From contig NC_090353.1 of NCBI RefSeq assembly GCF_035084215.1, forward strand, positions 13,082,001 to 13,146,000: a stretch of DNA of 64,000 nt, read 5' to 3'. A program made the position numbers and the translations under genes. The DNA comes from Heptranchias perlo. Lineage: Eukaryota. Position 1 is the first letter of the stretch. Each line of letters starts with the position of its first letter. Under the pieces are notes generated by a model. That model had not been told where the DNA came from and searched no databases. It saw only the letters and a program-made list of their open reading frames with translations. This document shows, in pieces, positions 4,863-30,377 of this stretch.

Positions 4863-5510
<648 letters not shown>

Positions 5511-5666
5511 TAAGTCCTGATGTACGGCAGACCTTTGGGGGAGGGGCTTCACAAAATGCATCTTCTCAGGGCAACTGTTTCATTTGTTTCTCTGGTTGAG
5601 GAAGAAATCAGGATAAGTAGCACATGTTCCGTGACTTACCAGGTGAAAGCTCTCTGCTGCTCCTTT

Positions 5667-6012: not shown

Positions 6013-6386
6013 TGTCTGAGTGAACTGGCACAGTCCTCGAGCTGTTGCTTTCCCTGTATTGTATTTCTTTGCCAGCTGATCAGATTGGTACGAAATTTCC
6101 TTCTGCTTCACCTTAGACAAGGATTTAACTGTGAAGTCGTGTGATGACACCATGTCTGTCTGGCCGAGATTGCACAGCAGCACAAAGACACTGGATGTCT
6201 CTGTACTCACCACTCCAAGGGAAGGCAGAGTTTCTATTTTGGATTCCCTGGGTGACCCCCCCCAGCTCTTTCTTTTATGTTTCTGCTTCACTGGTTGCAA
6301 ACCTGTCGTCTCCCTGACTAGCTCAGCCCAATATTCTGACACACATGACAGCCTGTCTTAGAACCATGAGGAGCCCTGCCATCCAC

Positions 6387-6400
6387 GTTGCCGTAGCAAC
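6387..6400. promoter_or_regulatory. Candidate RFX X-box
   Basis: GTTGCCGTAGCAAC fits the near-palindromic X-box consensus GTTRCCnnRGYAAC. Confidence 0.4.
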
Positions 6401-6989
6401 CGTTAACAAAACGGGTGCCCTTTCTGACATGTAATGCATGTTATCATCTGATAAGGAGATCAACGTGGTTGCTTATAGCAGCGGTGTAATCAGCACGTCT
6501 CTGTTCCATTATAAATGGGTTATTCGCGAATTAAGAGCAGCCTGTTAGACATTGAATAGGGATAAAATGGCAATATGAATCGGCAATTACAATAACTATC
6601 AGCAGCAGCCCCCTTTGTGAGTCTGTGGATTAAATTAGGTAACTAAACTCGCTGAAATGCTTTGTACACAGCTGCCCTTTTATACTTGTCTGCCTTATCA
6701 CACGGTTGCAACATCTAAATAATGCCTTTTTATTGCTGCACTAGTTTAGCGTAGGCCCTTGTTTTGTCCTGTTTAAATCAGCAGTATTCCTTAATTGTTG
6801 TCATTGCAGTAAAATCACATCTATCTCAATTCTATCAATTAAATCATCTATTTAAAAAGTCTCCCGAGTTGCTAGCAGCAGTGCCTGGGAGATTCGTGTT
6901 CCATCCCGGGAGACTCCCAGACAATCCGGGAGGATTGGCGACCCGAGCTGAAGCAGAACTCTATGTCATCACAATCCTTATTGGATTTA

Positions 6990-7562
6990 TTAGTGACTCT
7001 TATATTTATGACTCCTAGTCTTGGACTCTTCCACAAGTAGAAACATCTTCTCTACGTCAACCCTATCAAACCCCTTCATAATTTTAAAGACCTCAATTAG
7101 GTCACCCCTCAGTCTTCTCTTTTGTAGAGAAAAAGGCATCAGCCTGTTCAGTCTTTCCTGATAGTTATAGCCTTTCAGTTCTGATATCATCTTTGTAAAT
7201 CTTTTTTGCACCTTCTCCAATGCCTCTATACCTTTTTTGTAATACAGAGGCCAGAACTGTGCATGGTACTCCAAGTGTGGTCTAACCAAGATTCTATACA
7301 AGTTTAGCATAACCTCTGCTTTTCAGTTCTCTTCCTCTAGAAATGAACCCCAGTGCTTTGTTTGCATTTTTATGGCCTTGTTAACCTGTGTTGCTACTTT
7401 TAGTGATTTGTATCCCTTTGCTCTTCTACCCCATTTAGACTTTTATGTTCCAAAGATTATGTGGCCTCCTTATTCTTCCTACCAAAATGCACCACCTCAC
7501 ATTAATCTAGATTGAAAATCATTTGCCATTTACGCGCCCATTCTGCAAGTTCATTAACATCT
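6990..7562 (-). mobile_element. CR1 LINE ORF2 fragment
   Basis: Translates LYRILVRPHLEYHAQFWPLYYKK...RLRGDLIEVFKIMKGFDRVD. Confidence 0.9.
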
Positions 7563-10130
7563 TAGAATTTAGAGTTTAGAATTTGTAAGTTAAGTAACAT
7601 GGGGCAGAAACCCAGGGGATCTGAGTTTCGCCCCACATTCTGAACCCCCACCCAGCCCGCCACAACTCTGCATGAATTCCACCCTGCAGGGGGTGGGGGG
7701 GGGGGAGCAGAATTTCCAGACAGAGGTGTATTTTAATTCCAGCTTGCTGTCTACTCTCTGCACTGTATTGATTTAAATTAAAATAAAAGTGATTTTCCAT
7801 TAGGCCTGTAGGAGCTCACTCCCGTTGCTAGGAACTGAATGGCTGTTTCGATGTTAATCTATATTTTTCTTCTTCTGATTGTATGAAGATAGATGGGTAG
7901 ATTGAACAAAAATCCATTGTACATTCCTGGTTGTACTGCTGCGAGCCATTGCGGTCAAGACAGATCTATTAAAAGTGAAATGGTATAGACAACCATTTCT
8001 TCACTTGCCGATCTGTTTATTAACAGCAATATTGTGTCATTTTCATGAAAGGGTTTGGGGGGGCAGGGTTGGATGGGCAGCGGGTTGGGCACTGATCATT
8101 CCTCTCTGGAACCTGACTTGAAATTCACCCACAACCTTCTGATTCTGAGACAGGAGAACTACAAATTGAGCCAAGCTGACACGGTTTACTGTGATGATGC
8201 CTTTATATAACAGGACAGCAGCAATGGGTTTCCACCCTCTCCCCTCATTGGCTGTATCCCTCAATGTAAATACCTCCAGGCTCAGCTGTACCCCTTGCTG
8301 GAATGCCCCCAGGCTTGGAGAACTAACACTATCGTAAACCCATGGAAATGTGGGCCTACGATAATGCTGTTGGATTAAGGGAGCTGGATTTCAGGAGCCA
8401 GTTCCCAATTATTCCATTGGTGCAGTACCTGGGTCTCTGCTTTGCACAATTCTGCAGATCCTGGAAATCTGAAAATAAAAATAGAAAAAGCTGGAAATAT
8501 TCAGCAGGTTAGGCAGCATCCGTGGAAAGACAACAATCAACGTTTCAGGCCTTTGGCCCTTCCTCAAGTACCATGTGATCTTTAACAACCACCTCAACTG
8601 CCAGGACAGACCGACAAGGCTTCGGTTTAATGTCTCATCTGAAAGACGGCACTTCCAACAATGCAGCACTTCCCCAGTGCTGCACCAGATTATCAATCCA
8701 GATGATGTGCTGGTGTGGGATTTTGAACCCAAACCTTCCAACTCCAAGGTGAGAGTGTTACCAATTAAAGCCAAGATTATATTGTACTGTGGAAGTGCCT
8801 TAAAAAGAATACCAGATTCATCACACCCCAGCACTCTGGTCTTATCCAGCATCCTGACTGTATCTCAGTATACCATCGTGTATTGTACTCATTACAAAGT
8901 GCAGCTCCTTATCCTGACTAATTAGAGTAGATTAGCCAAAGGCCAGTCTGCTGCTCTCCTGCCACAGCTTTTCCCGTACAATGCAGCATTCGCCTTTATG
9001 CTGCTACTTCTCTTTATCATGTATAAAACATCCTAATTGTGCATAATTGGCAAAAATTGCGAGCCCCTAGCCACGAAGCCTGTACTAATGAATTTAGTGC
9101 GATGTAAGTGGATTAATATATAATAGGGCTCCGACATAAGGCTTTGAATAGACGACCCTGTCCTTCTGGCTCTTAGGTTTTGTTCTGTGGCCTCTCCAGA
9201 GAATGTGAAAAACACAGTTCCAAAACCAGCCGTTAAGGTCCCCGCAAACACAAGCAGTTCTTGTTTTAGTCAAAAAAGGGTTTTGAATTATTCAGATTGC
9301 ATGTTGTTAATGTGTCATTGGGCTTCTCCGTTTCACCAGAGCCCCACCTCTTCTGTGGACCAATAGGATGATAATCTTGTTGTGGGTGGGGGGGGTAGTA
9401 ACTGTCCCCCTTTTTAATGGATTTCTACAGGTTGCAAGAGGAAAGAAAATGATAATCTATGAAATATTTTATCTGCTAAGTGCAGAGAGTCTGTTCAGAG
9501 AGGGCAAGAGCCCCTGTTTCAATAACTAACCCCACCAAAGAATGTTTCACTGTTACATCCTTATGGCTCCCCCGTACGTTCATTGGGTTAATGTACTGCC
9601 AGACAGTTCCTGGTTCAATACCCACTCTTTGCTGAGTTCATTGATCTAAGCACCCTTGGTCTAAGGAGGTGACAAAAATCAGCCAGCTTTCCTGCTCCTG
9701 ATCCAATGACCCCAGCAGGATTTGCAAATGTGTTGAGGCTGCTGACTCGAGCTTGGCTGCCACAGTCTAATCCCCTGCCAACAACATTCACTGTCTAGGT
9801 TTATGCATGAAGGATGGCCGCTCGGGGAAGATACCTGAAGGGGTTGTCAGTCTCTACGGAATGGTACCCCAGCAAGAGTCAGCATCCTCAGGAGAGGGGA
9901 AAGTGGTTTAAAAACTGGATTCCACAGTAAAACTAACCCCATCCTAACCCATGATGTCTAAAGAAGAGTGAGAGCAAAGATTGCAGTGATACCTCAGTAA
10001 GGGGGATAGTATTTCTCCCCTTCAGTTTTTTCTCCTCCTCTCCCGAAGCTGCTCTTCAGTACCTCAGTACCCAAGTGGGCACTTTTCGTGTGTGAGCTAA
10101 CACAGTGGGTTTCGGCAGGCTACTTGACTG

Positions 10131-10472
10131 TAGGGTTGCCAACTCTGGTTGGACGTATTCCTGGAGGCTTCATCACATGACCTCCTGCCTCCAACCGCCC
10201 CGCCCCCTCGCTCCCGCCATTGGTCGCCCAACACGTCTATCCTCACGGCGCACCACCTTCCCCCACCAATTGAAAAGCAAACAAACTCTTTGTTACCCGA
10301 TTGGATGATTCTTGGCTCTCAGTCAAACAGCCTTTTTTCCCATCTCTAGTATTTTTATAACTAATAAGTGAAAGTGTTCAAAGATAATGAAAAAAAATGC
10401 CCCCTATGATTTTTCTCCCTGGTTGCTCTCAGCAGTGATTAATCTTCAATTCCTGGAGGGCTGGCAACCCTA
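10131..10472 (+). mobile_element. Non-autonomous hAT-type MITE
   Basis: Terminal inverted repeats (TIRs) TAGGGTTGCCA / TGGCAACCCTA with a perfect 8-bp TSD CTTGACTG (10123-10130, 10473-10480). Confidence 0.85.
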
Positions 10473-12211
10473 CTTGACTGTAGGGAAAGAAGGACATCAC
10501 AGCTGAGCCTGACATCCACACATGTGCACTTTCCAACGGAGAGCGATCAGGAGCAAGAATTCACTCCCGAATCGAACAATTGAGGGGGACTGTATGAAAA
10601 CATTCTTATTATTTACTTTACGTTTTTGTTCTCTTCTGCATGAGAAAGTAAAACAGTCTGACTTTAGCCTCCAACCCTGGGGAACCATTTTGTTTGCCCT
10701 CCTCTGACGACATTCCAACATTTGCTTTCAAAGCTCCCGCGGTCCTAATGAGAATATAGCAGAGAAAATACAGGCAGAGGGAAATGGGATTATCCAGTGT
10801 GGAGAGTAGTCTGCGTATTGAGACACAGATAGACGTATTGTGACTGCTAAATGGATTAGGTAACACTGTATAGAAGGAGACCGAAGGGATCTCATTTTGA
10901 TGCATTTTAATATCCTCATGTTTTTCTGAGGGAAGAGTCTCCTCACCGGAGACAGGTTCTGTACTTTTAATGTTTCGAAGAGGTCAACGTTCGACAAATC
11001 CTAGTCATGAGACTTGCAGTCCATTCGAGCCAAGCACTTAAAGGTGGTTAAAAGCTAGGTCTGTTACGAGGGCCTCAGAGGACAACCGAGTGACATTAAG
11101 ATACCTTTTCTCCTCCCCTTCGCATCTTCTTTTCCACGTTTTTCTCTTTTCTTTTCTTTCCCTACATTGTTGTTTAATGGAGAGCTTTTGCTGCTACAGT
11201 GAATGCTGGAATAGCCCTCCTTCCATTGCGGTTGCCTACATCACAACAGTGACTACACTTCAAAAGCAATTAATTGGACGTGAAGCACTTTGCGATGTCC
11301 TGAGGATGTTAGAATGTGCTAAAATGAAACAAGTTCTTTCTTTCTCTAGTTTTCTCTGCTAAGAGCAACGCTGGGGATCACTAGCACCGTTCGTACGTGC
11401 ACGTGATCTCGTTCCCAAGGCAGGAGGCGGGTGTAAGTCTAACCAGATATGAGGGCGCTCCTAGGCCTTTGAGTACATTGGAATTTTCTCTTTTGCCGTG
11501 TGTAAGCCCATTGTACACACACTGTAAGAACAGAGCTGGTGATAGGGAGTCCTTTTCCAGGCCTCGCTTAAGTCAAATGTGTAAAAATAAAGTCTGCCTG
11601 TGGGTGAAAAAAGTAATTTGAGATTGTTGTTGGGCTGTATAGGCTCTCAAAGCTGCTAAGCCTCATTAACCAATGCACATGAAGTTCAAATTTGTGATTT
11701 GTGACCCACTCCAAATCATTTTTTGTAGAATGTGTCATTTTTAACAATATTGTGGTGTTCAAAGCTTTTACAACAGGCAGTTTTATTTCACCATCACCTT
11801 GTAGGTGCACCGTGTGTTAAAAATACAGTCTGCAAGCTCCCCCCCGCTCCCAACCGCCCTCCCCGGCACCCCCCACCACCGTGGTTCGGTGGGTAATTCA
11901 CTGCCCAGTGTGGTACTGAGCCACATAGTCCAGGAAGGTTCCAACCCTGGTTTGGACTGGGTTAGCCAGGGTGGCAGTAGGGACAATTGGCCTCAACGCC
12001 CTTGGGTTAGGGAGGGGAAAAATGAGCCCGGGTTCCTGCTTTCCCCACATAACAGCAATCACTGCTCTTCAGAATGGCTCATTATATATGTAATGCTTTA
12101 GGACATTTCTGCGAGATGAGATAAATTACTGCATAAAAGCAAAACTTTCCTTGTTCTGATCACTATCCATCGGCCCCTAGTAGGAAGTGGGCGTCTATGG
12201 ATGTGGGCCAA

Positions 12212-12578
12212 TGAAGTACTTTTGAATTGTAGAGCAGCCAATTTGCGCACAGCAAGGCCCCACAAACAGCAATGAAATATATGGCCAGATAATCTATTTT
12301 AATGATGTTGGTGGAGGGATAAATATTGGCCAGGATACCAGGGAGAATTCCCCTGCTCTTCTTTGAAATAGTGCCATGGGATCTTTTACATCCATCTGAA
12401 AGAGCAGACATGGCCTGGGTTTAATATCTTATCCAAAAGATGGCATCTCTGACAGTGCAGCACTCCCTCAGTACTGAACTGGAGTATAGATTACATGCTT
12501 AAGTCTCTGGAGTGGGACTTGAACCCACAACCTTCTGACTCAGAGGCAAGAGCGTTACCACTGAGCCACAACTGACAT
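12212..12578 (-). mobile_element. Near full-length DeuSINE-like SINE
   Basis: On the - strand: a tRNA-like head (GGCTCAGTGGTAACGCTC...GGTTCAAGTCCC) and the central domain GAGGGAGTGCTGCACTGTCAGAGATGCC...AAAAGATCCCATGGCACTATTTC. Confidence 0.75.
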
Positions 12579-14127
12579 GGAAGTGATTCTACTATCTCCC
12601 TGATCTGTATAGCTCAGTACAACTCAGGGCATTGTCCTTACCCATCGAGCCATTCTCGCAGTCTAATGAACAGCTTTTATTGAACGGCTAACTGGACTGT
12701 CGAAAGGTGCTTTGCAAAGTGGCTGCTTCACTTCATCTACAGTTGGTCCAAGTGCAACATTTTTTCGTTAAGTCAGAACTGGGCTGGTTGGCCCCTTCCT
12801 CACTCCAACCCACTCACACATTTTGCTTCAACCTCTCAAAGCAGCATTGGAAAGACCCCTGGGGAGGACCAGTCCCATTCAGAAGGTCAGTTATCATTTA
12901 TCAGTAAGCAGTTTTCTCACTTAGAAACAAATGAAGTTCCCCGGACCTTCCTGACGGCCACATTGCTGCCAGTATGACCAGCTGCCATATGTGGTATAAG
13001 GAACTATCACAATTAATTACTTTAATCAATATTCAGGTTAGTAAGGAAGATGGTATGAGAGGGAGATTTCCCCACTTAAGAAAATTGAGCTGTATCTGTT
13101 AACATATAATTTCAAAGCCATGTTACAGTTAATTAGGAGGCAGCATGTTCTTATAACACATCAGCAGCATATCCCGTAGGCTAGTTCATCTGCATTGCCT
13201 TGAGGGTAAATGAACCATATGAGGTCTGAAGTATTTAAGCATCCATCTGCTAGGCATTACAGGGTTACTATATGGTACAGGTCTACAAATGAATAATTGG
13301 CCACTAAGTCATTGCATATATCTAGGTCTCTGTCTGTCCCAGTGATTAATGGGGATGGGTCATGGATAACTTACAAGGCCTGTGAGAGACTTTAGGTCAC
13401 TCTCCTTGTCTGCTAGAAAAGGAGAATCTATTTCTCCTCCTCCGTTTTTTTCCTTCTGTCCTTGGGTATGACTGCACAGGTTCTCGCTGTTCTTTGGTAC
13501 CTCAGTCAAGAGAGATTCAGGGCAGTTTTACAATACTGGAGTGTTTGACACTACTGAACATTTTACACTAGGTAGCCACACAGTTCTTTCTCTTGTCTGC
13601 ATTCCTTAGTTTAAACAGCCCAACATTCAGGGAATTAATGGTATCACAGAACCAGAAAATGTGCATGTATGAAGTCTGATGTAAGGTTACAGCCAACTGT
13701 CCCTATAAATGCCAGGAATCAGTCCCCTCACCCTTTCACTCAATAGCAACCACATGTCCCTATTACATAGCAGAGCCCAGCAGCATTACTCAGACTGGCC
13801 CTCAACTGGGGAGGGGGGCCGAGCACCATATGGAGTGGTTCTCCTGATTCAGGAACAATTACAACAGGAAATGGTGTTTTGTGCGTGCCTTGTGTTTTGT
13901 TGTATCTTTGTTGTGGGAGGAGGCGTTTAGACTTTCCATAGACCCAAAACCAAAATATCAGGGTGAGATGGCCCATTAAGCCTGTGTGGAATATTTCATC
14001 TTCATATCATTCAGCTTAATCTATATTGCCGCTGGTTCTGATGGCTGGCTTTGAAGGAACTGAGGCTTTGTAGAATTAGTACCAATGGATTATTGACAAA
14101 ACCATTTTGTACCATATGCTCCTTCTG

Positions 14128-14502
14128 TAGGGTTGCCAACCCCTCCAGGAATCAAAGATTAATCTCCAGAACACTCCAGCGAGCAGTCCTGGAGAAAAAG
14201 CACAGGGGCATTAAATAAATTGTGTTTTTGTTTCCATTTTCTTTGAACACTTTCGTTTATTAATTATAAAAATATTGCAAATGATGGGGGGGAATGGCTG
14301 CTTGATTGACAGTCAAGAATCATCCAATTGGGTAACGAAGCGTCTGTTCGGTTTCCAATTGATGAGGGGAAGGCGGAGGGGGGCAGCGCGAGAATGGACG
14401 TGTCGGGCGACCAATGGTGGGAGCGTAGGGGCGAGGCAGGGGCGATTGGAGGTCATGTGATGAAATCTCCTGGAATATGTCCAACCAGAGTTGGCAACCC
14501 TA
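14128..14502 (-). mobile_element. hAT-type MITE, same family as 10131-10472, opposite orientation
   Basis: TIRs TAGGGTTGCCAAC / GTTGGCAACCCTA; TSD TCCTTCTG/CCCTTCTG (7 of 8 identical). Confidence 0.85.
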
Positions 14503-15959
14503 CCCTTCTGATAGGCAGTTACTGGACAACCTTTTGTCCTTGAAGCAGTTTTTAAAATTCCTTTCCCTTCCCCCTCAAAGCAGACTAAGTTCAGTAGTTG
14601 CTGAAATATTTACCATGCGATATTGTCAGTACTGATGTACTTCTAAGGCTGTAAAGAGCTTTGGGACATCCTGAGGTCATGAAAGGCACTATATAAATGC
14701 ATGTCTTTCTTTTATCTGCTGCCAGTGGCCATATGGAGGTTTGGCTGTTGACAATTGAGAGTTGCTGTCAATGGCATGAAGCCCACCTGTTAGCAGTAAA
14801 CTGTGTTTCAATAGATAAAAGCACCTTCAACCTGTTCCTCCTGGTTACCCTGACCACCATCCCCCACCCAAGTTTTCTTCACCCTCTCCTGATGACCCTG
14901 TGTCATGCAGGGGTGCAGTTTTGCAACTGTTTTGCTATATCTCCCTCAAGCATTTGTGGTGCGTGATGTGCAAGGGCATGCATTTTTCCAACAGGAGTCA
15001 CTGGATAATGATCAGGAACGGGTGCCAAGGCTGAATTATTTTCCCCCTCCTGAACCAGGGGGAACCAAAGCCAATTGCAGTTCCCCCACTACTGCCGAAA
15101 CTGGGCTGAGCCAATTCAACACAGACCAGGGACTGATCCTGGGTCTGGAAAGCTCAGTCCGATACTTGGTAGCTCACTTAACAACTGAACTATGGGGTAT
15201 TCTTAACATGTTTTGTTTTTTTCTCTGCTCATGGCTGCTCACTGTGGCCCTGAAACTGCACACTTGCCGCAGAGTCAATGACTTTTACTGCCTGAATCGG
15301 AAATGGAAGCAGCCAGGGGACAGGAGTCCTGAAATAAAACAGCTGCTGTAAAGAAAAAACATTAATAAAGATCGGGTTCATTGGAGCGAGGCGCATGTTT
15401 GTTTTGTGGTTGGAGATATCGGCTGGCAGCAGCAGGAGGGACAAAAGGAATTTATTTTCTGTGATTTTTACAAAAAAGCGCACAGTGTAGAAAGAATTAA
15501 AGTGAAGCAAATAGTGACGGCTGTGTTGCTCCCCACAGTCAAATAGCCCATTCGCTGTATAGACTCACACACGTAGAATGGTAATCGTTGGCTTCCTAGC
15601 AAGAGGTCAGTGCCTTTGAGGGGAAGAAGGGAGAGGATTTGTGAGGGGGAGGAGAGTGGAGATGTGGAGCAGTTGAAGAATTCTTGCACCTTGAAGCAGA
15701 AGCTGTTTCACTGTAAGATACCGCTGCCCACGTTCTGAATTTGCCCTGTTTAAACTGCAGGGGTGTCAGAGACCAGTAGCGAGCCCAAGTCAGAGTCACG
15801 ACTTTCCCATTCAGTCAGCTGGGGCAATTTCACTGCTTTGTGCTACCGTGGGGAGCCTCGTCTTCTGAGAACGCGTCAGAAACCCAGGCCTGTGCTGCAC
15901 ATGGCTCCCTACCAGCAGCACAGAGTCAGGAAATTACCTCCATTTAAAAATTTTTATTC

Positions 15960-16643
15960 TTGTTTTCAAATCCCTCCGTGTACTTGACTCTCCCTACCTC
16001 TGTAACCTCCTCCAGCTCTACAACCCTCCGAGATCTCTGCGCTCCTCCAATTCTGGCCTCTTGCGCATCCTCGATTTTCATTGCTCTGTCATTGGCGGCC
16101 ATTCCTTCAGCTGCCTAGATCCTAAGCTCTGGAATTCCCTCCCTAAATCTCTCTGCCTTTCTACCTCTCCTCCTTTAAGTTGCTCTTTAAAACCTATCTC
16201 TTTGACCAAGCTTTTGGTCACCTGTCCTAGTATCTCCTTATGTGGCTCGGTGTCAGATTTCCTTTGATAACGCCTCTGTGAAGTACCTTGGGACATTGTT
16301 TCTCTGGTGGAGAGTTCAGAACAAGGGGGCATAGCCTTAAAATTAGAGTTAGGCCATTCAGGGGTGATGTCAGGCAGCACTTCTTCACAAAGGTAGTGGA
16401 AATCATGAACTCTCTCCCCCAAAAAAGCTGTTGAGCTAGGTCAATTGATAATTTAAAAACTGAGATTGATCATTTTTGTTAGGCAAGGATATTAAGGGCT
16501 ACGGAACCAAGTCGGGTAAATGGAGTTAAAATACAGATCAGCCATGATCCAATTGAATGGCGGAACAGGCTCGAGGGGCTGAACGGCCTACTCCTGTTCC
16601 TATGTTCCTTAAAGAGGCTATATAAATGCACGTTGTTGTTGTT
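15960..16643 (+). mobile_element. L2-type LINE 3' end interrupted by a CR1 3' fragment (~16299-16608)
   Basis: L2-like 3' sequence runs to ...GAAGTACCTTGGGACATT, then a CR1 tail ending TTCCTATGTTCC, then the L2 tail resumes with CTATATAAATGCACGTTGTTGTTG. Confidence 0.7.
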
Positions 16644-19514
16644 GTGTGTCCTCCCTGATGTCGGGGGAGGGTTCATGAAGACCAACCATATGAGAACCAT
16701 AGTACCGGCCTAAATGGAGAATGCCATCCCATAACCAAAGCAGCATTGTGACCCCAATGGCTGGCACTATCACCAGCCTCCATTTACATATGCCGTCAGT
16801 AGCACTTTTGCCTTTGGAGGCTAGGGGCGAACTGACTGTATGAGGTGCATGCCTCACCTCACGTATGTTACAGGGCTGCCTCCAGTGCGAGTTTGTAATG
16901 TACTGTATTGTATGGTTCCCTCGTCATATATGCATATAGTATGTGAGTTGTTTGAGAGTTTGAGGTTTGTGACTTCAGTCCTGGATTCCAGACCTTCCTC
17001 CACAGCTGGAGAAGGTCCATAGATGTCAGAGATTGGGATCCTGCATCACTGACTTGTACGAGCATACTGAGCATTCAGTAGTTGGTGGCAGCAAACCATC
17101 TTGCCTGCGGAGGCAGCCTTTATATTTACTGGTGCCCTGTGTGTAGCTCAGCACATCTTCAAAGGCACCAGGGGGTTGTAAGCTAATGCTGTCCGTGAGT
17201 TACAGGAATCCTTTTATGAGTGTGAAAGGCTTATAAATTTACGAGAACCAAAGTGCAATATACCGTGGATGGGTTTCTACGCATGTAAATTAGCTTCTTC
17301 AATGTTTTATAATACAGAACATTTATTTTTGTGGGGTATTTGAATACATTTTCTCCAGTACAATCCCCTCCACTTACACCGTCGGTGCTTATCACAGGCA
17401 GCCGCTTATATCGGTAAAATGGCGATAACCGTTTGCCAGTACCATTAGAGCTCATAACATATTAAGCGCGCCGGCTATATTGGACAGTATTTGACCCTTA
17501 TACCTTAACGCCTGGACAGTATTTAACCCTTATACCGATGTGCGATGTTCAGTTTTTAGCCCCTGCGAGGACTCCAGGAAGCGGCAGAGCTGCAGCGTGA
17601 CTCTCCCACGATTCTCTCTCTGCGGGCAGACTCGCTTTTTCAGTTGACGCTTCTCTAGGTCAGTACAGGAACTGACTGGAAGCTGCAACCAACACCAATC
17701 TGTACTTCAGTGACCAGTTCAACCCGCAGTGATCACAGCAGGTGGCAATTGATTTTACTGTCCACCACTTATAGCGGGTAAATCATGTTAACACCAAACA
17801 GTGGGGACTGTACTTTGGTATTTTTATCCCTATTTTTTCTCCATCTACCTGGCCTGCTCCTGGCAGCTGAGATAACCAGGGTTGGGGGGGGGTTGGCGGG
17901 ATCAGCCTGCTCCCAGGCCAGTGCTGGCGTCTCATGTAGCCCAACTACCACGAGATGCCAGAGACCACCCACCCTTGACTCTCCGCTCCAACTTGTCCCA
18001 CCCTCTGCTAAGGGGCAACGTTCCTTTCCGCTGCTCCCCACTTTGACGTGGCTCAGGTGGGAAATTGGGCTTCGAGGTACTTGGACCAGCGGCGTGCCCT
18101 GCTCGGTGGCCCTGAGCATTAGCGCACTGTCGTCTAGGCTCACACATGAAGAGGAGGGGGCACTTGGAGAAGGTGGGTTAGTGTGACTGGCGACTGTGGA
18201 ATCGAACCCCAGCAAGAGTCAGCACCTCCAGGGAGGAGGGGAGAAAACTGAGGAGAGGAATTAAAAATAGAAGAAACGAGTAACATTGATAGACCACAGA
18301 AAGATAGAACATGATTCCTATACTTCCTTTCACACTGAGTGTTTAACTTTGGCCTGTGTCCTCACAGAGTAGCTAAAGTCAAAATATAAATTAATAAATT
18401 AAAATATTACTTCATGGCATCTGTCAAATTATCAATCCAGTAAGATTTTTATGATAGTTTTTGTCTTCACAACAGTAATTACTTTGTAAAGCTCTTTGGG
18501 ATGTCCTGAGGATGTGGTAAGGTTACATACCTGGCAGTACGTGTACCCATCAGGCCAATGATGGACAGTTATGGTTGCATGCCCTCTCTGGAGGAAACAG
18601 TAACTAAAAGGCCAATAATAGCTTTATGCTGCATGGTGTTTTACAGACTAGCTGATTCGGTTTAGCTTTTACCAGTCACCGCTCAGGTCCTGATGTCAGC
18701 TGATGATGGTTTACGGAGGCTGTCCACATGAAAGGCACTGACATGGGGACCATTCTGTTCCCCTACTGTTGGTCGTGAAGATTAAAGCTTCTGAAACTCC
18801 AGCTCATGAATATTACATGAAGCTACTAATAGCACATGCCTCCTAATCAGCTCTCTTCTGTCTGCTGCTGGCATAAATGTTGGGCCTTTCTTAAGGGAAT
18901 TCTTTTAACCAGTTTACAGCACGCGTTTGAGTAATGTGTAGCAACTCTTTTTTTGTGTTGCCAAGTCACCCCCTCCCTACCCTGGTGGCCTTGACTCAAA
19001 CTGGAGGGTCGTTCCGTGGGCTCCAGTCACTCAGGTGCCTCGTCCAAGTGCTTTTGTTCCTCATCTGTGAGTCCAAGCAGCCTCTTGTGTATCCAAAAGT
19101 AGTTTAACTTGTTCATTCCTAAAGACGCCATTTGGCATCGCTCCCACTGCAATAACAGCCATGCTTCAGGATAACAGCAGATGGTGTCGTTATTGCTAGG
19201 CAGAAGCAATGGTGGGGAGGATCCAATTGCACACATTAGGTTTGAATTTCTGCCAATTCTGGAACCTACCCCCCTCTCCAGCTCTTTTACATCTACTACT
19301 TCATTAGCTCGAATCGGGCAGCACTGGGTTTACCAGCCGGTGATCCTACTACAAAAGATAAAACCACTTCCTGATCGATATCTTGGATTTCTTACATTAC
19401 CTTTACCGTGTGAAGTGGCTGCCACTCGAAGGCATTTCACAATGTGCTTCAGCCCCTGGTGCTCCTCCCCAACACGTGTTCGGAAAAGCTAAGCAGCTGG
19501 AATGGCCTTCCCAG

Positions 19515-19763
19515 CAGGGTTGCCAACTCTGGTTTGGACGTGTTCCTGGAGGTTTCGTCACATGACCTCCTGCCTCCAACCGCCCCACCCAGTCAAACAG
19601 CCTTGTTTCCCTAATAATAGCTAATTATACCTAATAAAAGAGTTTAAAGAAAATGAAAAAAAAAACATTTTTTTTCAATGCCTTCTATGATTTTTCTCCC
19701 GGGTTTTGCTCACAGCAGTGTCCAGGAGATTAATCCTTAATTCCTGGAGGGTTTGCAACCCTA
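19515..19763 (+). mobile_element. hAT-type MITE, internally deleted copy
   Basis: TIRs CAGGGTTGCCAAC / GTTTGCAACCCTA with a perfect 8-bp TSD CTTCCCAG. Confidence 0.85.
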
Positions 19764-20993
19764 CTTCCCAGTGGGTATACCACTGTTCTGCATAATAATG
19801 GAAGAGGAAGAGGAGCAGCAGAAGCAAGAGGCTCTGAGAGTGAGGCATTATGACAGAAGATAACACACATCTTTTTCCACCATATTGGTGGCGCTGTATT
19901 TGCGTTTGTTTTGCATCGGTGTCGGCTAATGAGCTACACAGGAAATTTGGGGTAAGTTCCTGTCGGCAAGATCAGCGTGGAATCCAACCTAAATTTCGGC
20001 ATTATTTCAGCGTAAATGGCATCGAGGAAATTCCAGGCCACTGTGTGGTTTTTCTTTTCTAATTTTGGTTGCCATGTTCATGCCCCTTCATGAGGCTACA
20101 CCTCCCATCTTCATGAATTTAACGATCATTCACTTATGGGGGTTAAGAGGGAGGCAGACAGACCGTCACTCACTCCTCTAAATGTCTCCGCCACTGAATG
20201 CTCCGTGTGATGTGCTCCTAAAAGCCACACAGGTTCAATTCCCGGTTGTGCTGTTCACTGCTCTCAGCTGTTGGGGTGCTGCAATTGGCCTCAGTGCCCC
20301 AAGGCTAGGGAAGAGGAAAAAAATCGGCCAGGATCCCTGCTCCTGATCGCTATCAGGTGGCCCCTGCTGGGAAGTGTGAGTTTCTAGATGTCAGGTGAGG
20401 ACCAGATTGGCCGAGAGGGTGACCAGGCTTGGCTATGCAATGTCCTTAGAATTGTACCTCAGTGTGGTCAAGAGAGGAGAGAAAAAAAGCATCAAAATAT
20501 TGAGCCCAACAAGCCCGTCCCTTTTTGATAGATCAATCCAACCGAACCAACTTCTCACCAGACCTCTCAATCCCTTCTCCTTCTACCCGCTCGAGGGTAC
20601 TAATACCCTTCAGGGTTACATAAATGCATCTAATCAGGATATGAGTGGGGGAAGGGAAGTAAGTAGAGAGGGGTTGATGTTTTGTTTATTTTTATTGAAG
20701 GGTTAATGATTAAAAGTGTACACACACGGGACTGTCTGATATCTAATTATATGCTGAATTATGGTGGTGCACAATGAATCAGCTTCATGCCAGGATTTGG
20801 CATTAGTTCTTCCCCAATGCCCCTGTATCCCGATATAGTCAGTACCTTGTGCGCATTTCGCCTGTGTATTTTAACCTCAGTGTTAGGCTCACGCATGATT
20901 AACACCTCTACAATGTTTATTTTCCCTGTAGCTCATTTGATTTTGTTGGTAACCCCACTTAAAGGATGCTATTGTTCCACCTGGGATATAAAA

Positions 20994-21230
20994 TGTGGAG
21001 ATGCCGGTGATGGACTGGGGTTGACAATTGTAAACAATTTTACAACACCAAGTTATAGTCCAGCAATTTTATTTTAAATTCACAAGCTTTCGGAGATTTT
21101 CTCCTTCCTCAGGCAAATGTTTCAAGATCTTGAAACATTTGCCTGAGGAAGGAGAAAATCTCCGAAAGCTTGTGAATTTAAAATAAAATTGCTGGACTAT
21201 AACTTGGTGTTGTAAAATTGTTTACAATTG
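20994..21230. mobile_element. Non-autonomous Penelope-like mini-element forming a perfect 206-bp palindrome (21025-21230)
   Basis: The arms are exact reverse complements centred at 21127/21128. There is a 12-bp TSD TGGGATATAAAA (20982-20993, 21229-21240). The tail is the reverse complement of the terminus of the Penelope element at 45703-45731. Confidence 0.85.
21137..21177 (+). ncRNA. Minimal type I hammerhead ribozyme-like motif (mirror copy on the - strand at ~21078-21118)
   Basis: AUUUGC-CUGAGGA-A-GGAGA(AAA)UCUCC-GAAA-GC-U-U-GUGAAU contains both core boxes, stem II, a palindromic micro stem III, and stem I AUUUGC/GUGAAU. Confidence 0.6.
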
Positions 21231-23261
21231 GGATATAAAAGACTGCACTGCCGCCTCCCACCTCTCCTGCCGTCATTCTTTGCTGGGGTATAAGGGCCAC
21301 AGACATCGGCAGCGCTTCAGTTCCACGCCCAAAAAAGCTATTCTTTGCGTATGGGGCAAGTTTTGTGCTCCGAAGGTATTCAAGGCCCTGCTCTCTGCAA
21401 GGCCAATACGCAGGTCATTAGTGGAACACACACTTCTGTTTTCAAATTGTCTTTTACTGATTGTCACTGGCATACCGTTCCACGAGAACAAGTGTCTCTC
21501 TGCTACCTCACTGAGGGCAATTCTGGTACTCCTACCATGGCCCTAGCTGCTATCCACCCATTCAACACAGACCAGGGATCAAACTGGAGCCTTCCTGGTC
21601 TATACAGCGTAAATACCAACCTGGAGAACCAGCAAAAACTTTGCAATGGGGCACAAGCTTGTTATTTAAGCTGTGAGTATACCCAATGTTCCTTCACTTA
21701 AGTACATAAAAAGCTGAAGAGGTACACGTATTGAAGGCAAAAGATTTATTTTCTACGGGTATCTGGGGCATGCTTTCCTCTCTCCCCCAAATGCTGTTCT
21801 TTCTCTGCCCCCCTGTGCTGATTGTGTTCCATAAATGCAGATAGGGTACCCAGAACACTGACTGCCTGTGTCAAACGCAGATGGTTGGCGATAGGGCTCT
21901 GTTTGACGACTGCAACTATAACTGTGCAGTAACTACCCACGGAGTCATGGATGGAAAATGGAGTTTAGATTTCTTAATTTTAAACTAAAGTTAGAAATGT
22001 GCAGAGTGAGTACAGAGAGTGACAGATTCAGATTCATATCATGCATAACTGTCCTCTGCCAAAGAAAGAGTCATGTTATTAAAAATGTATTTTTACTCTC
22101 CTGCATATCAAGATTTCATATTCTTCTAAATTATTTTTGCTGACATATGGGCCAACTTCTGTTTTTATTTTCCCAACTTGGAGTGAAGAAAGCCCGTGGA
22201 TCAAATCCCTGTGTTGCAACCTTTTGAAAGCACCCCTAGTATGCCCCTTTTATGGACCATGGTTAACAAGTGTTAGATGAGCAGTGAATTCATGATTGAG
22301 CTGTCTACAGCAACAGGACTACACCCCGGTTGAGTAATAGCCTTTTGGAAACCATAACAAACCAATTTAAGAAAAAGCTGGCTGAGGAAAGCTGATACTA
22401 AGAATGTTATCCCTGGACATTATGTAGCTGAATGATTCAGAATAGCTTGGAGCGACTGTCATAAATTTGGATTTGAACTGCCCGCTTTACACTTATTCAT
22501 TCAACTGATTCAGTTCCTGGCCAGCAGCTCAAAACTGTTTGAGAATGCAAATAACTGAACAGTGGATCCAATTTATACCTCGCTTTTTGCAAAGAGATAA
22601 ATCTGGGTCCGTTTCTCTGTGCATAAGTCTAGGCAACAAGTGTCGGGATATTGCGGCTCAAGCTAACCCTGCCCTCACTCGCACTTTTCAGGAGGGATTG
22701 GCACAGAGCAAACAGGAGTCCTGGCTGATATTTTTCCTAATCCAGGACACTGAAATCATGATATCACTTCCAACTACTCGGCCTGCTGAGATCAGCTAAC
22801 TCGGCACAAACCAGGGATCAATAAACTTCATACCCCAAACAGGCTGTGCATTTGCCCATTAGGCCATTGAGGGAGCTTATTATGTGATTTTAATAGTATT
22901 ACCCTCCAATGTTACCTTCCTACATTACAACAGTAACTACTGTACACTTCAAAAGTACTTCATTGGCTGTAAAGCGCTTTGGGACGTCCTGAGGTGGTGA
23001 AAGGCACTATATAAATGCAAGTTCTTTCTTTCTTTCTATGCAATGATGAAGGTTTATAAACAAGTGAAGGAGTTAGCTTTAATTTCCAATAATATTTTGA
23101 TTTAGTTTTGTCTAATATGTAAATAGTCCATGAACAATGGCACCCATTGAGTTTTACACACCTATTCTGAGTTCTTTGACTCCAAACAATCCCAACCTTT
23201 CTCACATTCTTCTGTTTCTACAATTATCTATCCAATTCATTATTGCCCTGTTGAGCCAAAG

Positions 23262-23552
23262 AACCATAGACGGTTACAGCACAGAAAGTTATTTGGCCCA
23301 TCTTCTCTGTACTGGTTCTCGGCTAGAACAACCCAAAACTACTCCCAGAGTCCTGCTCTCTCCCCCCGTAGCCCTGTATCTTCCTTTGTTTCAAAAACTT
23401 AAAAAGTGCAATGACCTGACTCTTTGTGTGAAGACATTTCTCTTAACCCCTCTGCTTACTCTCTTAGTGACAAGTTTAAATTGATGACCCCTCACCACTG
23501 ACTCCCCATCCAGAGGAAATAGTCTTTCCCTAGTCACCCTATCAAAACCCTA
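23262..23552 (-). mobile_element. Degenerate CR1 3' fragment
   Basis: Reverse-complement CR1 tail (catagacggttacagcacagaaag...ggcccatc) and GFDRV-type coding remnant. Confidence 0.55.
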
Positions 23553-24694
23553 CCTCCTTTTGGTTCACCTCATACACTTTTCAAATTCAAAGTGTAAGTA
23601 TTGTACATTTTCTCTGATAATTAAGAGCCAATTCTCCCAGATTTTAAAATCTCGGATAATCGAAAGTGTTACATCAAGGGATATATCTTCCAATTGATGA
23701 AATCCATACTAATGTTTAATCTATTCCCTGTGCGCTATTTTAGGCAGGCATTAACAGGTTTATTTTGAAATGCATCTCCAAATCCCTGCCTGTTACTAAT
23801 CCCTTGTCAGACTTCCTCTGAGGCCTGTCTGATCTGTCTGTGATAGACTAATATTTAATTTGACACAAGTTGTGGTGCTTAATTATCAATTCTGTAAATA
23901 TCCATTTCATTCCCAAAACGTTAACTTTCTAATTATGCTTCATTTCCTTCCACTAATTTCATTGCCCCTTTTCCTGAACCCACTGCCTCATGCCAGTTCC
24001 AGAGCTGACTGCCTCTCTCTGGTAGCTCGCCCAGGCACCCATTCTTGAAGTGTGAGCCTATACAATGAGCACCTGCAGACTGTTTGATCATGGGGCACAT
24101 AACACCTACGCCCAGTCATGTCCTCACTCGACCTGCACATTGTTGTGCTGCATTCTCCAACAAGGGTCTTTGGATAGTGTTCAGGAGTGGGGACGATGAC
24201 TGATTTTACACCTCTATTGTCCAGGAATGCTGAGGCCAATTATAGTCCCCTTTCTTCGAGGGGTAGGGGAGTCTTTTTTTCAGAAAATGAATGGGGAAGC
24301 AGTCAGATTTCTCTAGAATTGAAATATTTTTATTGAGAAACCCAGGTGAAGTAGTTCATGTCCACAGTACAGTCCATCGTCAAGGGTGAAAAGAGTGGAA
24401 GAGAAGGCGAGGTGAATCAGGAAGCAGTGCTGGGTGCCAGCAGGATAGAAGGCAATGACTTGTCGACTGTTGGTGCTGCTACCTAATTTCTTCCTCCCAT
24501 TACTGTAATGTCAGTTTTCCACCCTTCCCCTATGAGAAGCACAGGAGCAGTTGGAATGATTCAGCCTATGGAGGGGTGATGGCTCTATTCCCCGACAGCC
24601 CAGCCAAGATCACGCACTCACAAAGGGGAAGGTTTCCTCTTTGCGCTATTTGTAATGAAGTCATAGACACGTTCTTTATAAACAATTACAATTT

Positions 24695-27400
24695 CACTAC
24701 ACATACCATATAGAGATCACGCCATCACTACACATACCATATAGAGATCACCCCATCACTACACATACCATATAGAGATCACCCCATCACTACACATACC
24801 ATATAGAGATCACGCCATCACTACACATACCATATAGAGATCACCCCATCACTACACATACCATATAGAGATCACCCCATCACTACACATACCATATAGA
24901 GATCACCCCATCACTACACATACCATGTAGAGGAGATCACCTCATCACTACACATACCATGTAGAGGAGATCACCTCATCACTACACATACCATGTAGAG
25001 ATCACCCCATCACTACAGATACCATATAGAGATCACCCCATCACTACACATACCATGTAGAGGAGATCACCTCATCACTACACATACCATGTAGAGATCA
25101 CCCCATCACTACAGATACCATGTAGAGGAGATCACCTCATCACTACACATACCATGTAGAGATCACCCCATCACTACAGATACCATATAGAGATCACCCC
25201 ATCACTACACATACCATGTAGAGATCACATCATCACTACACATACCGTAGAGATCACCCCATCACTACAGATACCATGTAGAGATCACCCCATCACTACA
25301 CATACCATATAGAGATCACCCCATCACTACACATACCATATAGAGATCACCCCATCACTACACATACCATCTAGAGATCAACTCATCACTACACATACCA
25401 TGTAGAGATCACCTCATCACTACACATACCATGTAGAGATCACCTCATCACTACACATACCGTAGAGATCACCCCATCACTACACATACCATGTAGAGAT
25501 CACCTCATCACTACACATACCATGTAGAGATCACCTCATCACTACACATACCATGTAGAGATCACCCCATCACTACACATACCATGTAGAGATCACCCCA
25601 TCACTACACATACCATGTAGAGATCACCCCATCACTACAGATACCATGTAGAGATCACCCCATCACTACACATACCATATAGAGATCACCCCATCACTAC
25701 ACATACCATGTAGAGGAGATCACCTCATCACTACACATACCGTAGAGATCACCTCATCACTACAGATACCATATAGAGATCACCCCATCACTACAGATAC
25801 CATATAGAGATCACCCCATCACTACACATACCATGTAGAGGAGATCACCTCATCACTACACATACCGTAGAGATCACCCCATCACTACACATACCATGTA
25901 GAGATCACCCCATCACTACAGATACCATATAGAGATCACCCCATCACTACACATACCATGTAGAGATCACCCCATCACTACAGATACCATATAGAGATCA
26001 CCCCATCACTACAGATACCATGTAGAGATCACCCCATCACTACAGATACCATGTAGAGATCACCCCATCACCACACATACCATATAGAGATCACCCCATC
26101 ACTACACATACCATATAGAGATCACCCCATCACTACAGATACCATGTAGAGATCACCCCATCACTACAGATACCATGTAGAGATCACCCCATCACCACAC
26201 ATACCATATAGAGATCACCCCATCACTACACATACCATATAGAGATCACCCCATCACTACACATACCATATAGAGATCACCTCATCACTACACATACCAT
26301 GTAGAGATCACCTCATCACTACACATACCGTAGAGATCACCCCATCACTACAGATACCATGTAGAGATCACCCCATCACTACACATACCATGTAGAGATC
26401 ACCCCATCACTGCACATACCATATAGAGGAGATCACCTCATCACTACACATACCGTAGAGATCACCTCATCACTACAGATACCATATAGAGATCACCCCA
26501 TCACTACACATACCATATAGAGATCACCCCATCACTACACATACCATATAGAGATCACCTCATCACTACACATACCATGTAGAGATCACCCCATCACTAC
26601 AGATACCATGTAGAGATCACCTCATCACTACACATACCATATAGAGATCACCCCATCACTACACATACCATATAGAGATCACCCCATCACTACAGATACC
26701 ATGTAGAGATCACCTCATCACTACACATACCATATAGAGATCACCCCATCACTACACATACCGTAGAGATCACCTCATCACTACCGATACCATATAGAGA
26801 TCACCGCATCACTACACATACCATGTAGAGATCACCCCATCACTACAGATACCATGTAGAGATCACCTCATCACTACACACACCATATAGAGATCACCCC
26901 ATCACTACAGATACCATGTAGAGATCACCCCATCACTACACATACCATGTAGAGGAGATCACCTCATCACTACACATACCGTAGAGATCACCTCATCACT
27001 ACAGATACCATATAGAGATCACCCCATCACTACAGATACCATGTAGAGATCACCCCATCACTACAGATACCGTAGAGATCACCTCATCACTACAGATACC
27101 ATGTAGAGATCACCCCATCACTACAGATACCATGTAGAGATCACCTCATCACTACACATACCATATAGAGATCACCCCATCACTACACATACCATATAGA
27201 GATCACCTCATCACTACACATACCATATAGAGATCACCCCATCACTACAGATACCATATAGAGATCACCCCATCACTACACATACCATGTAGAGATCACC
27301 CCATCACTACAGATACCATGTAGAGATCACCCCATCAATACACATACCGTATAGAGGAGATCACCTCATCCCCTTCACTACACATACCACGTAGAGATCA
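24695..27400. repeat. 31-bp tandem satellite/minisatellite, about 87 copies
   Basis: Unit ATRTAGAGATCACCYCATCACTACASATACC, with recurrent +3 (GAGGAG) and -2 (CCGTAG) variants. Confidence 0.97.
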
Positions 27401-28011
27401 GAGCCCTAAGACTGTCTATGTATTTTCCCATTATAGTAATTTTCAGTCTTTTTTAGTCGGTCTCGGTGCCTGGAAACCATCATCTAATAAGTTTCTGTAG
27501 GCACGATGTTAACCCTTCATGCCCCAAAGGCCAGTTTACCCATCCAGGCGCTGTTGTGCTGTGGGGATCCACAAGCTGTTATATGTAGAGATAAACATAT
27601 CAAAAACTGTCAGGGTCACACCACCAACTGACCTTGTCAATCTTCTGGGCTTAATCATTTGATTCACAGAAAGGACCCTCTGTGTAACCAGCTTTCAAGC
27701 AAACAGATGGCAACTTTGTAAACTCACTCCCGAATCCAAAATGGCGATGGTAGCAGGAAGGCACCAGAAACAATTTCTTTTGGTCAGCCAGGTGTCCAAA
27801 CATGTGAAAGCCCACCATCATGTTCAAGAGTCTCTAAACCGAGCTACTAAATAAAGCTTCCATGATAGGGACTGTGCATTGTGTCGCCATTGAAATTAAT
27901 GGGGTGACAATCGGTCGGGTTCTAAAGCGGGCGGGTGGTGAAAGTGAAAATGACCCCCAATCTGTCTACCTTTGCTCAATTGTTATTTGATGGCCAAGGA
28001 AAGGCAGGGCT

Positions 28012-28025
28012 GTTGCTATAGAAAC
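28012..28025. promoter_or_regulatory. Candidate RFX X-box
   Basis: GTTGCTATAGAAAC, with a second half-match GTTGCTATGG at ~28087. Confidence 0.35.
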
Positions 28026-28412
28026 TCCTGACCAATACTGTGTGAAATTGTAGGCTGTACAGTAAAGCTTCGAATCGGGCTGCGTGTTGCTATGGCCCTC
28101 ACAGTGATGAGGGGGTCTAATGATAACAGAACTTTAGGATTGATCGCTTGTGACTGAAATTCAATTACAATGAAGCGAACGTTCACACAAGATTAGTTAG
28201 CAATATTGATGATTTAAATTCCTATGCTAATGAACAGTGGAAAATACTATTGTGCGCCTTTGTTTTAACTCATAATTTGTTTTACTTAATTGGAGTCACA
28301 TATAAGCAGAGGTGGCCCCGTACTAAACCCATCGATGGGGATTCGGGCTCAGGTCTGGTTACACAGGTGCCAGCCGACAATCCAGGAGCCCATTCCCATG
28401 TGTGAGCTCAGA

Positions 28413-29116
28413 CAGTGGGAGTAATTTTAATTCTGCGCAATGGTATCAAATGGACGATATCGATTAAGCCGTCCATTATTCAACCCTCGCCCTGATTTTC
28501 TTTTCCATTGACATCAGTCGGGTGGCGTGTATAATGGACGGCGTGTATAATGGGCAGGATGTATAACGGGCGGGGCGTGTAATGGGCGGGGCGTATAACG
28601 GGCATATAACTGGTGGGGTGTGTAATGGATGGAGTGTATAACAGGTGGGGTGTATAATAGGCAGGGCGTATAACGGGCGGGGCGTGTAACGGGCGTATAA
28701 CGGGTGGAGTTTGTAACGGGCGGGGCATATAACGTGCAAGGCGTGTAACGGGCAGGGTGTGTAACGGGCGGGGCGTGTAACGGGCATATAACGGGCAAGG
28801 CGTATTACGGGCGGGGCATGTAGCGGGCGTATAACAGGCGGGGTGTATAACGGGCAGGGCGTATTACGGGCGGGGCATGTAGTGGGCGTATAACAGGCGG
28901 GGTGTATAACAGACAGGGCATGTAACAGGCGGGGTGTATAATGAGCAGGGTGTATAATGGGCGGGGCGTGTAATGGGCGGGGTGTATAACGGTCGGGGCA
29001 TGTAACGGGCGGGGTGTATAATGGGCGGGGCATGTAACGGGCAGGGTGTATAACGGGCAACCAGTTCGATAATGCCCATTTCACACCATCACCCAAAGTT
29101 AAAATTACTCCCACTG
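28413..29116. mobile_element. MITE (Harbinger-like TIRs) with an internal G-rich minisatellite (~28520-29060)
   Basis: Perfect 18-bp inverted ends CAGTGGGAGTAATTTTAA / TTAAAATTACTCCCACTG and an internal array of GGGCGGGG(Y)RTRTAAC units. Confidence 0.75.
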
Positions 29117-30377
29117 GCAGGATGTTGAACTACAGAGAGGTTTCCAAACGAGCCCCAATCTTGTCCCCATCTCTCGTCCATACAAACGGCCTTTCCAGCA
29201 GATGGTCACTGATAAACAGTCAGAGTGAGAGTCCTAACTATCCAATTAAATTTCATCATTTTTTTTCTGTACCTAATTTCTCTTTTTAAAAGAAACTTTC
29301 AAACACTCCACCCCATTTTTCTTCTTCCTCCTTCTCCCACTACCAATTTGACTCCACGGCCAACAAAAACTCCAGAAGACTGGTGAATGATATTGTTGCA
29401 CTCTAAAGATGACCAGATAAATCTCTGATGAGGTTTTACTTGATAAACAGGGCTGCCAACAAGCTGATGAACCTATCCATAACACAGAGGACAAGAACAC
29501 ACCTGGACTCATCCGTGGTGCGCTAAGGGTTCAAAAGGGGACTTCTGAGCTACCGGCATTGGAAGAGTTAACACGCGAATAGTCATGTGACTGCAAAGCA
29601 ATTAAATGTGTTGTCATTGACCGGAGGCTGTTACACTGTGTTTGGGTTTTATGTCCCCTTTATCTTGCTAGGAGGGTACCCTGTAATTCTGCCTGAGGTA
29701 TTGTAACTCTCCCTGGGAGGTAGTTTCTTAGATGTCAACAGTTTGGCATTTTAGAACCAGCAGCTAAGGCAAAAAGTTGCCTCTGCCATCTCATTTATCT
29801 GGTCTGCTATCTTGGCTCTGAACACGGATGGATTGAGCCCACAGATACAGAGCAGAAATACGAGAGCTGGTTCAGCAATCGCCCGCGGCTTGTAAGGAGC
29901 AGCCCTGGCAAGGGCAGGTCAGAGAATCAAGGGCCCGTGACCTGTGATTTCCCTGGAGGTTGTGGGGGTGTGATTTCCTGACTTGCTCTACCAGCGGGTG
30001 CATTCCACACTGGAAACACCCGAGTGCAGGATCAGCCTACAGTTTCCCATTGCTAACTCATACGAACCTTCCCCCCACCTCCACCAAAGAAATCAGGGAG
30101 GTTCCTGGCCATACATGGTAACTGCTCATGTGTAACTTGAACTGTTCTGTAATACACTCGGGGCAAATTCAGTCACGATTCCAAGTGCACTGGAAATGGT
30201 TGTGAATACAAATGGCACACAAGTTGGTCTAATGCTCCCGGGATTTAAATTCAGCTTGTAAAACGAGAAAGGGGCAAAGGTGCAGCTTTTCCTTGTTCGG
30301 CTAATTCTACCCCCCTCAATTACAGCCTGTACCTCATTGTTCTCTCTTTTTTTTGCTTCCTCTCTTTCTCTCCACAG

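Follow-up and report, generated by a model that had tools for sequence, protein, structure and literature searches.

A perfect palindrome with no spacer, located in an intron of an SH2-domain adaptor gene of the shark Heptranchias perlo, is very probably the product of a single, very recent retrotransposition event of an endonuclease-positive (EN+) Penelope-like element (PLE), a dead stub of 235 bp. The window analyzed here is a stretch of 64,000 nucleotides (NCBI RefSeq assembly GCF_035084215.1, contig NC_090353.1, positions 13,082,001 to 13,146,000 of the forward strand), and coordinates are counted from its first letter. A first-pass annotation, made from the letters alone, had described an exact inverted repeat without spacer at 21025-21230, a 12-bp target-site duplication (TSD) flanking it, and a 30-bp tail matching the end of a second PLE at 44 kb. 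The first two descriptions hold. The two halves of the palindrome are complementary at 103 of 103 positions, with a spacer of 0 nt and arm mismatches in 0/103 pairs (95% upper bound 2.9%), and this is the sole perfect palindrome of at least 16 bp in the window. Its folding z score was -30 against 200 shuffles, and equal stability was reached in 0/200 of them. The TSD, TGGGATATAAAA, is present at both ends, with a chance expectation of about 1e-6 to 7e-8 per site pair, and its right copy shares 2 nt with the end of the palindrome. The tail does match the end of the 44-kb element, but it measures 31 bp and lies to the left of the palindrome on the plus strand; the element therefore reads on the minus strand, in the order inverted arm, forward arm, tail. 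Positions 20993-21113 align to 45732-45612 of the 44-kb element with 87.6% identity over 121 bp. Both element 3' ends face outward at the TSDs and the 5' ends meet centrally. Each outer junction shows 1-2 nt of microhomology, as judged from the window sequence and from the continuation of the tail in read contigs, where the tail of other copies runs into CATG, probably the start codon of the open reading frame (ORF). The isolated tail forms no stable hairpin (-0.8 and -0.6 kcal/mol). Extrusion of the palindrome as a cruciform would be about 12 kcal/mol costlier than the duplex, so that supercoiling would be needed.

The family identity of the stub comes from its longer sister at 44 kb. The sister is flanked by 13-bp TSDs (44091-44103 and 45735-45747) and consists of an inverted arm, an inverted piece of ORF, a forward ORF covering the endonuclease region (44741-45331), a pseudo long terminal repeat (pLTR) and the tail; its 570-bp inverted arm is 97% identical to the forward arm. 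The ORF is 95% identical to a 643-amino-acid shark protein with an RVT_1 domain, and the named proteins among its 37 matches are mostly from sharks. A Pfam search of the ORF gave no endonuclease match; its motif VVYL..WYIGET..R..GH presumably belongs to the GIY-YIG type. The inverted arms of the 21-kb and 44-kb elements end at the same base, and their forward arms pass through the same tail. The 21-kb insertion shows homology to the pLTR of an element encoding reverse transcriptase (RT), a tail at one end, an inverted 5'-truncated copy together with a TSD, and a hammerhead in the pLTR, all of which are features of EN+ PLEs.

An inverted, 5'-truncated copy next to the 5' end and a tail of 30-40 bp are typical of PLEs (PMC8557442). 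A 31-bp tail, TSDs of 9-10 bp, head-to-head geometry and palindromes at the inverted junction have also been described, with self-priming as the proposed origin (PMC3846280), and the same traits are listed elsewhere (PMC8969392). The stub resembles these EN+ PLE insertions (PMC8557442; PMC3846280; PMC2377424) in its inverted 5'-truncated copy, its 31-bp tail at one end, its short TSD and its junction palindrome. It differs from them in having no ORF and no spacer, and in arms that are equal and symmetric over 103 bp, whereas the junction palindromes in the published passages compared measure 18-38 bp. As in the Poseidon element PAc of Anolis (PMC11167929), the hammerhead lies about 100 nt upstream of a tail set by two RT start sites, and the target is AT-rich; the PAc ORF begins inside the hammerhead, whereas the probable start codon of the 21-kb family follows the tail. 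The 21-kb insertion is thus the known layout of a PLE insertion at its smallest, with no ORF left.

Read contigs were compared with a reference covering 20860-21160, using two DNA runs (X1 and X2) and two runs guessed to be RNA. The arm was matched by 10,961 and 10,804 contigs in the two DNA runs, 4,800 of the 10,961 at an identity of at least 99%, and the family is therefore large and young. Summed depth reached 2-4 million where the flank had 9-15; it does not measure copy number and is read as "very many" only. Contigs with assorted flanks started at 20993 (126 and 115, with a consensus ending in CATG), and others in run X2 started at the tail-less end, at 21022/21024 (14 and 37). Eight distinct joints across the centre were listed, each represented by one contig per run at a depth of 5.9-43.9. 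In all eight, one arm begins at -2 to 7 and the shorter one at positions 35-116, and in seven of the eight the restart lies 9-15 nt upstream of the hammerhead core. Four of the 16 listed DNA pieces span the centre, with 4-8 gaps. From these joints and gapped pieces it follows that other copies have other centres.

These results bear on a rival explanation, a self-propagating, non-autonomous palindromic family (retrozyme-like, or like a short interspersed element) whose hairpin is transcribed and reinserted by the PLE protein and whose copies all share one centre. The very many near-identical copies would suit such a family, as would the clustering of restarts within 10 nt of the 21-kb centre and the high depth past it; an internal promoter is reported for Penelope of Drosophila virilis (PMC2377424), and non-autonomous PLE derivatives exist (bioRxiv 10.64898/2026.07.22.740005; PMC8557442). 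We nevertheless consider it very unlikely. The eight listed joints and the four centre-crossing pieces all show other centres, RT would have to copy through a perfect 103-bp hairpin of -167.8 kcal/mol, and the outer ends match those of the ORF-bearing sister, so that no special family is needed. The hammerhead, considered next, also counts against it: it cannot fold according to the models, there is one sense copy per strand, and there is no tandem array.

A descriptor scan of the whole window found only three hammerhead motifs, at +21143, -21112 and -44191, the last of which lies in the inverted arm of the 44-kb element. In the plus-strand motif at 21 kb, a 6-bp stem I (with 2 G-U pairs) is accompanied by CUGAGGA, a bulged A, a 5-bp stem II, GAAA, a palindromic GC and UU, and the cut is predicted after 21171. 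The intact core, the unpaired base 5' of stem II, the G-C first pair and the GC in place of stem III are shared with metazoan PLE hammerheads (PMC4209133). Rfam gave 0 matches at the gathering score over the window, and the 38 sub-threshold matches in 20900-21350 included no hammerhead and were mostly microRNA hairpin models on which any long hairpin scores. That annotation had also noted that stems I and II differ from those of the 44-kb family yet still pair, and had seen in this a conserved structure. The stem sequences are as it gave them; covariation was not found, since in a comparison of three sequences, which has little power, 0/11 stem pairs were changed on both sides and two were changed on one side to G-U. 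Two stem pairs exist solely in the 21-kb copy in that three-sequence comparison.

Folding calculations on the isolated arm gave a probability of 0.95 for stem II and 0.46-0.65 for stem I, with an overall fold no better than that of shuffles (z = 0.27). For the whole palindrome, the probability of stem II was about 1e-15 in both directions and in co-transcriptional snapshots ending just past the motif, and forcing the hammerhead fold carried a penalty of 71.5 kcal/mol in an equilibrium computation. The hammerhead is predicted to be unable to fold because it is buried in the 103-bp hairpin; whichever direction is transcribed, the antisense arm is transcribed first. The earlier proposal that the palindrome presents a ribozyme in either direction of transcription is accordingly not upheld, and by these models the hammerhead is a passenger and not a working ribozyme. 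For rolling-circle monomers, the unit boundary is expected at the cleavage site; here the unit starts 44 nt upstream of the predicted cut, and 0/8 listed joints fall on the cut. Minimal PLE hammerheads have been reported to show no cleavage as monomers and low cleavage as dimers, a second sense copy being needed (PMC4209133). The same source describes pairs of hammerheads on opposite strands 100-700 bp apart, unlike which the 21-kb motifs are exact complements within one hairpin and neither is predicted to fold. The stub resembles non-LTR retrozymes (bioRxiv 10.64898/2026.07.22.740005) in being non-coding, derived from a PLE pLTR, equipped with a type-I hammerhead and chondrichthyan. Those retrozymes, as described there, are head-to-tail tandems with at least two sense hammerheads, whereas the stub is head-to-head with one per strand. 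On this architecture, together with the position of the unit boundary away from the cleavage site, assignment to the non-LTR retrozymes was rejected. The other copies listed have different centres, although the 21-kb centre itself may recur.

Two further observations concern the hammerhead region. The forward hammerhead of the sister carries A instead of the first G of GAAA, at 45634, and is predicted from this change to be inactive; the inverted copy is intact. On the antisense strand of the element, a splice-donor-like signal falls exactly at the boundary of the hammerhead core (44186-44197 and 21108-21119), reading CAG/GTGAGT in the 44-kb family and CAG/GCAAAT in the 21-kb copy. This signal could favor exonization.

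The insertion is probably hemizygous, germline, very young and still polymorphic. In each of the two DNA runs, one contig is identical to the left flank as far as 20993, where the left TSD ends, and continues from there with other letters, 18 in the X1 contig and 1,717 in the X2 contig (2,894 nt). If the X2 contig represents an empty allele, its last letter would fall at 22957, which is 40 bp into a repeat with its left edge at 22917, the kind of place where such contigs break. If the insertion is included, the contig would stop in a stretch for which the window contains no repeat match. Contig assembly drops rare variants, and short junction pieces of the filled allele would have been dropped from the contigs. 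The apparent empty allele in the same sample and the arms without mismatches bear out the earlier view of the insertion as a non-coding Penelope derivative of very recent origin.

An assembly or long-read artefact, a somatic or mosaic insertion, or a real insertion that lost its spacer during consensus calling is another reading, for which speak the contigs from this sample that cross the site without the insertion. The share of sampled words recovered was 0.97, which equals the loss expected with all 73/2,483 insertion-specific words missing. We regard an origin of this kind as highly unlikely. An artefact would have had to produce three things at once: an exact TSD, a one-sided tail and the two ends typical of the family. 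Reads of the fold-back type fail to re-enter the unique flank, and a junction piece that is short and joins unique DNA to a very deep repeat would be prone to removal. A miniature inverted-repeat transposable element (MITE) or fold-back DNA transposon, with long terminal inverted repeats and a TSD, is close to negligible as an explanation. In its favor are inverted repeats that nearly reach both ends, the TSD and the lack of coding sequence; against it stand the homology to the pLTR end of an element that encodes RT, the asymmetric tail of 31 bp that separates the repeat from the TSD, and the different TSD lengths of the two sisters (12 vs 13 bp).

Several points weigh against the reading of the stub as a single young PLE insertion. 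The four runs share a single sample, which may also be the one that was assembled. Among the 32 contig pieces listed, beyond which lie 29,284 further pieces and 393 loose ends, neither the filled junctions nor the exact centre appear, so that the filled allele is not confirmed by contigs, and the empty allele is inferred from the stop of the match at 20993. An identical centre in other copies yields no joint and is uncountable here, and the large depth reached directly after the centre, about 240-290 thousand, is not decomposable. The clustering of restarts is biased: the right-arm reference is 33 bp and about 20 letters are needed, so that restarts are visible to about position 13. Joint microhomology is only mildly raised, with a mean of 1.75 (n = 8) vs 0.82 by chance. 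A point in favor is a TATA-like box in the pLTR of the 44-kb element, 35-37 nt before the hammerhead core, from which a transcription start is predicted near the restarts; this argument is weak and the stub might carry a promoter of its own, because the promoter of D. virilis Penelope is internal and TATA-less (PMC2377424).

For the origin of a single PLE insertion of this shape, the following route is proposed. The stub would comprise two cDNAs of the pLTR end, one with the tail and the other inverted and tail-less, joined 5' to 5' between the TSDs, and the mirror image would arise at integration and not from a palindromic parent. The PLE protein would nick both target strands 12 bp apart, and each 3'-OH would prime reverse transcription on RNA through a microhomology of 1-2 nt, with one start at the far edge of the tail and the other at its near edge. 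Both cDNAs would run off after about 100-135 nt, where the RNA begins a short way upstream of the hammerhead, and the run-off cDNAs would be joined through their short self-complementary end. Under this proposal, the arms would be short because of the run-off at the RNA 5' end. We place this double-priming route at a little short of an even chance; fold-back self-priming of one cDNA is possible but doubtful, and antisense-template or other routes are rather unlikely.

The sister element offers a comparison of the two priming routes. Its inverted arm holds amino acids 419-444, which are missing from its forward arm (from amino acid 446), and this fits an independently templated second arm better than fold-back, although later deletions could mimic it. 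Fold-back accounts for the perfect identity of the arms, but a loop is required and the fixed tail-less end calls for a reason of its own. The microhomology at the joints fits double priming and fold-back alike. The anole PLE protein, a predicted dimer, cleaves and extends the two target strands in vitro; its starts on the RNA lie at two sites, one on either side of the tail, and hammerhead cleavage is not needed for insertion (PMC11167929). A literature search, which reached little subscription work or older PLE reviews, returned no report of palindromic PLE stubs in sharks and no double-priming model. The features of the stub, its host intron and its sister are collected in Table 1.

Table 1. 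Coordinates of the 21-kb stub, the host intron and the sister element in the 64,000-nucleotide window.
Feature	Position	Strand	Basis or remark
Left TSD, 12 bp	20982..20993	+	Two left-flank read contigs end their match at 20993
PLE tail, 31 bp, on one arm only	20994..21024	-	Matches the end of the 44-kb element up to 45732
Forward, tail-bearing arm; final 103 bp of pLTR	21025..21127	-	Window alignment
Minimal type-I hammerhead motif, minus copy	21078..21118	-	Descriptor scan
Spacerless centre AGA/TCT, meeting point of both 5' ends	21125..21130	.	Window self-comparison
Inverted, tail-less arm	21128..21230	+	End base identical to that of the 44-kb inverted arm
Minimal type-I hammerhead motif, plus copy	21137..21177	+	Descriptor scan, folding
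Right TSD, 2-nt overlap with arm end (primer-template microhomology)	21229..21240	+	Window comparison
Host intron, GT..AG, phase 2, 24.9 kb	5510..30377	+	Between two SH2-domain exons of an adaptor gene
Longer sister PLE insertion, same layout	44091..45747	+	TSDs, arms, ORF, pLTR, tail

Other observations were made on the PLE family and its surroundings. In the sister element, the inverted ORF piece (amino acids 419-444 of P0001) is fused at 44665-44742 to amino acid 577 onward, the forward arm beginning at amino acid 446, and this three-piece junction resembles twin priming. Pieces of the 44-kb PLE family occur in several shark host-gene models among the protein matches. In other copies of the 21-kb family, go-back joints within 21012-21062 (21056->21014, 21042->21024 and 21062->21033) yield partial tandems of very small size close to the tail. 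The guessed-RNA runs also contain loose ends close to the centre, at 21130 (agreement 0.62) and 21121 (0.82) with 4 contigs each; these might reveal what lies upstream in the parent, with a native AGA ahead of the arm, but they were too noisy to use. Pattern scans of genome contigs and viral contigs gave 0 matches, and the one match in metagenome contigs was rejected as a chance hit inside a bacterial-looking ORF.

Repeats of other kinds are also present downstream of the sister. At 47872-48036 lies a second, older head-to-head inverted element of another repeat family, with a self-match of 85.9% and a spacer of about 24 bp; its outer ends are an ATGA repeat and an A-rich stretch, and no TSD of at least 8 bp was found for it. 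This suggests that inverted-end insertions in the window extend beyond PLEs. A 398-bp inverted pair at 54191-54588 and 55900-56295 (93.7% identical, 1.3 kb apart) ends in the same repeat family as the 47.9-kb element. An RT fragment at 50301-50837 (Pfam RVT_1, E 3.5e-15) is presumably LINE-like.

Within the host intron, the distance from the insertion to the donor is 15.5 kb and that to the acceptor 9.1 kb; the intron also contains a 2.7-kb minisatellite (24694-27400) of units of about 31 bp that are about 91% alike. The first-pass annotation had predicted a 103-bp hairpin in SHD pre-mRNA, with Drosha/Dicer or ADAR as possible partners. The host is indeed an SH2-domain gene whose transcript would fold the hairpin, but the name SHD was not confirmed: PDB searches for the host paralogue gave generic SH2 matches or none. 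We take the gene to belong to the SHB/SHD/SHE/SHF group. As for the proposed substrates, the ADAR part receives a weak hint at the family level. In the two runs guessed to be RNA, A>G differences at 21071 accounted for 6.2% and 4.7% of the depth, in 50 and 49 contigs, vs 0.016% and 0.005% in the DNA runs (5 and 4 contigs); the shares at 21076 were 5.2% and 4.2% vs 0.9% and 1.0%. Both sites follow U, and ADAR prefers a preceding U. The other five listed differences showed no RNA enrichment, and no matching T>C excess was seen in the read contigs. The A>G excess weakly hints at ADAR editing of the family and not of the 21-kb locus, and a transcribed subfamily bearing G would look alike. No RNA run was listed as containing the sampled words, and the guessed-RNA runs did not cover the unique flank and are silent on expression of the 21-kb locus. 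The stub would be a passive long hairpin in a host intron, possibly edited.

How inverted pLTRs and one-sided tails arise in PLEs is called undefined in passages of two of the sources above (PMC8557442, PMC3846280). Newborn, still-polymorphic stubs keep the junctions that separate double priming from fold-back priming, and the shark genome seems to carry very many of them. Taken together, we tentatively propose, with more doubt than confidence, that such stubs may be double run-off products, made when a protein dimer primes both nicked strands, each from one of two RT start sites in the 5' leader of the transcript, and the short cDNAs are joined head to head, and that in sharks they may give rise to very many short, perfect and still segregating hairpins whose intronic transcripts undergo A-to-I editing. 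If this is true, a single double-priming step would account at once for the TSD, the tail on one side and the inverted pLTR. Should the A>G excess reflect editing, the stubs would also be a renewable source of long double-stranded RNA in host introns.

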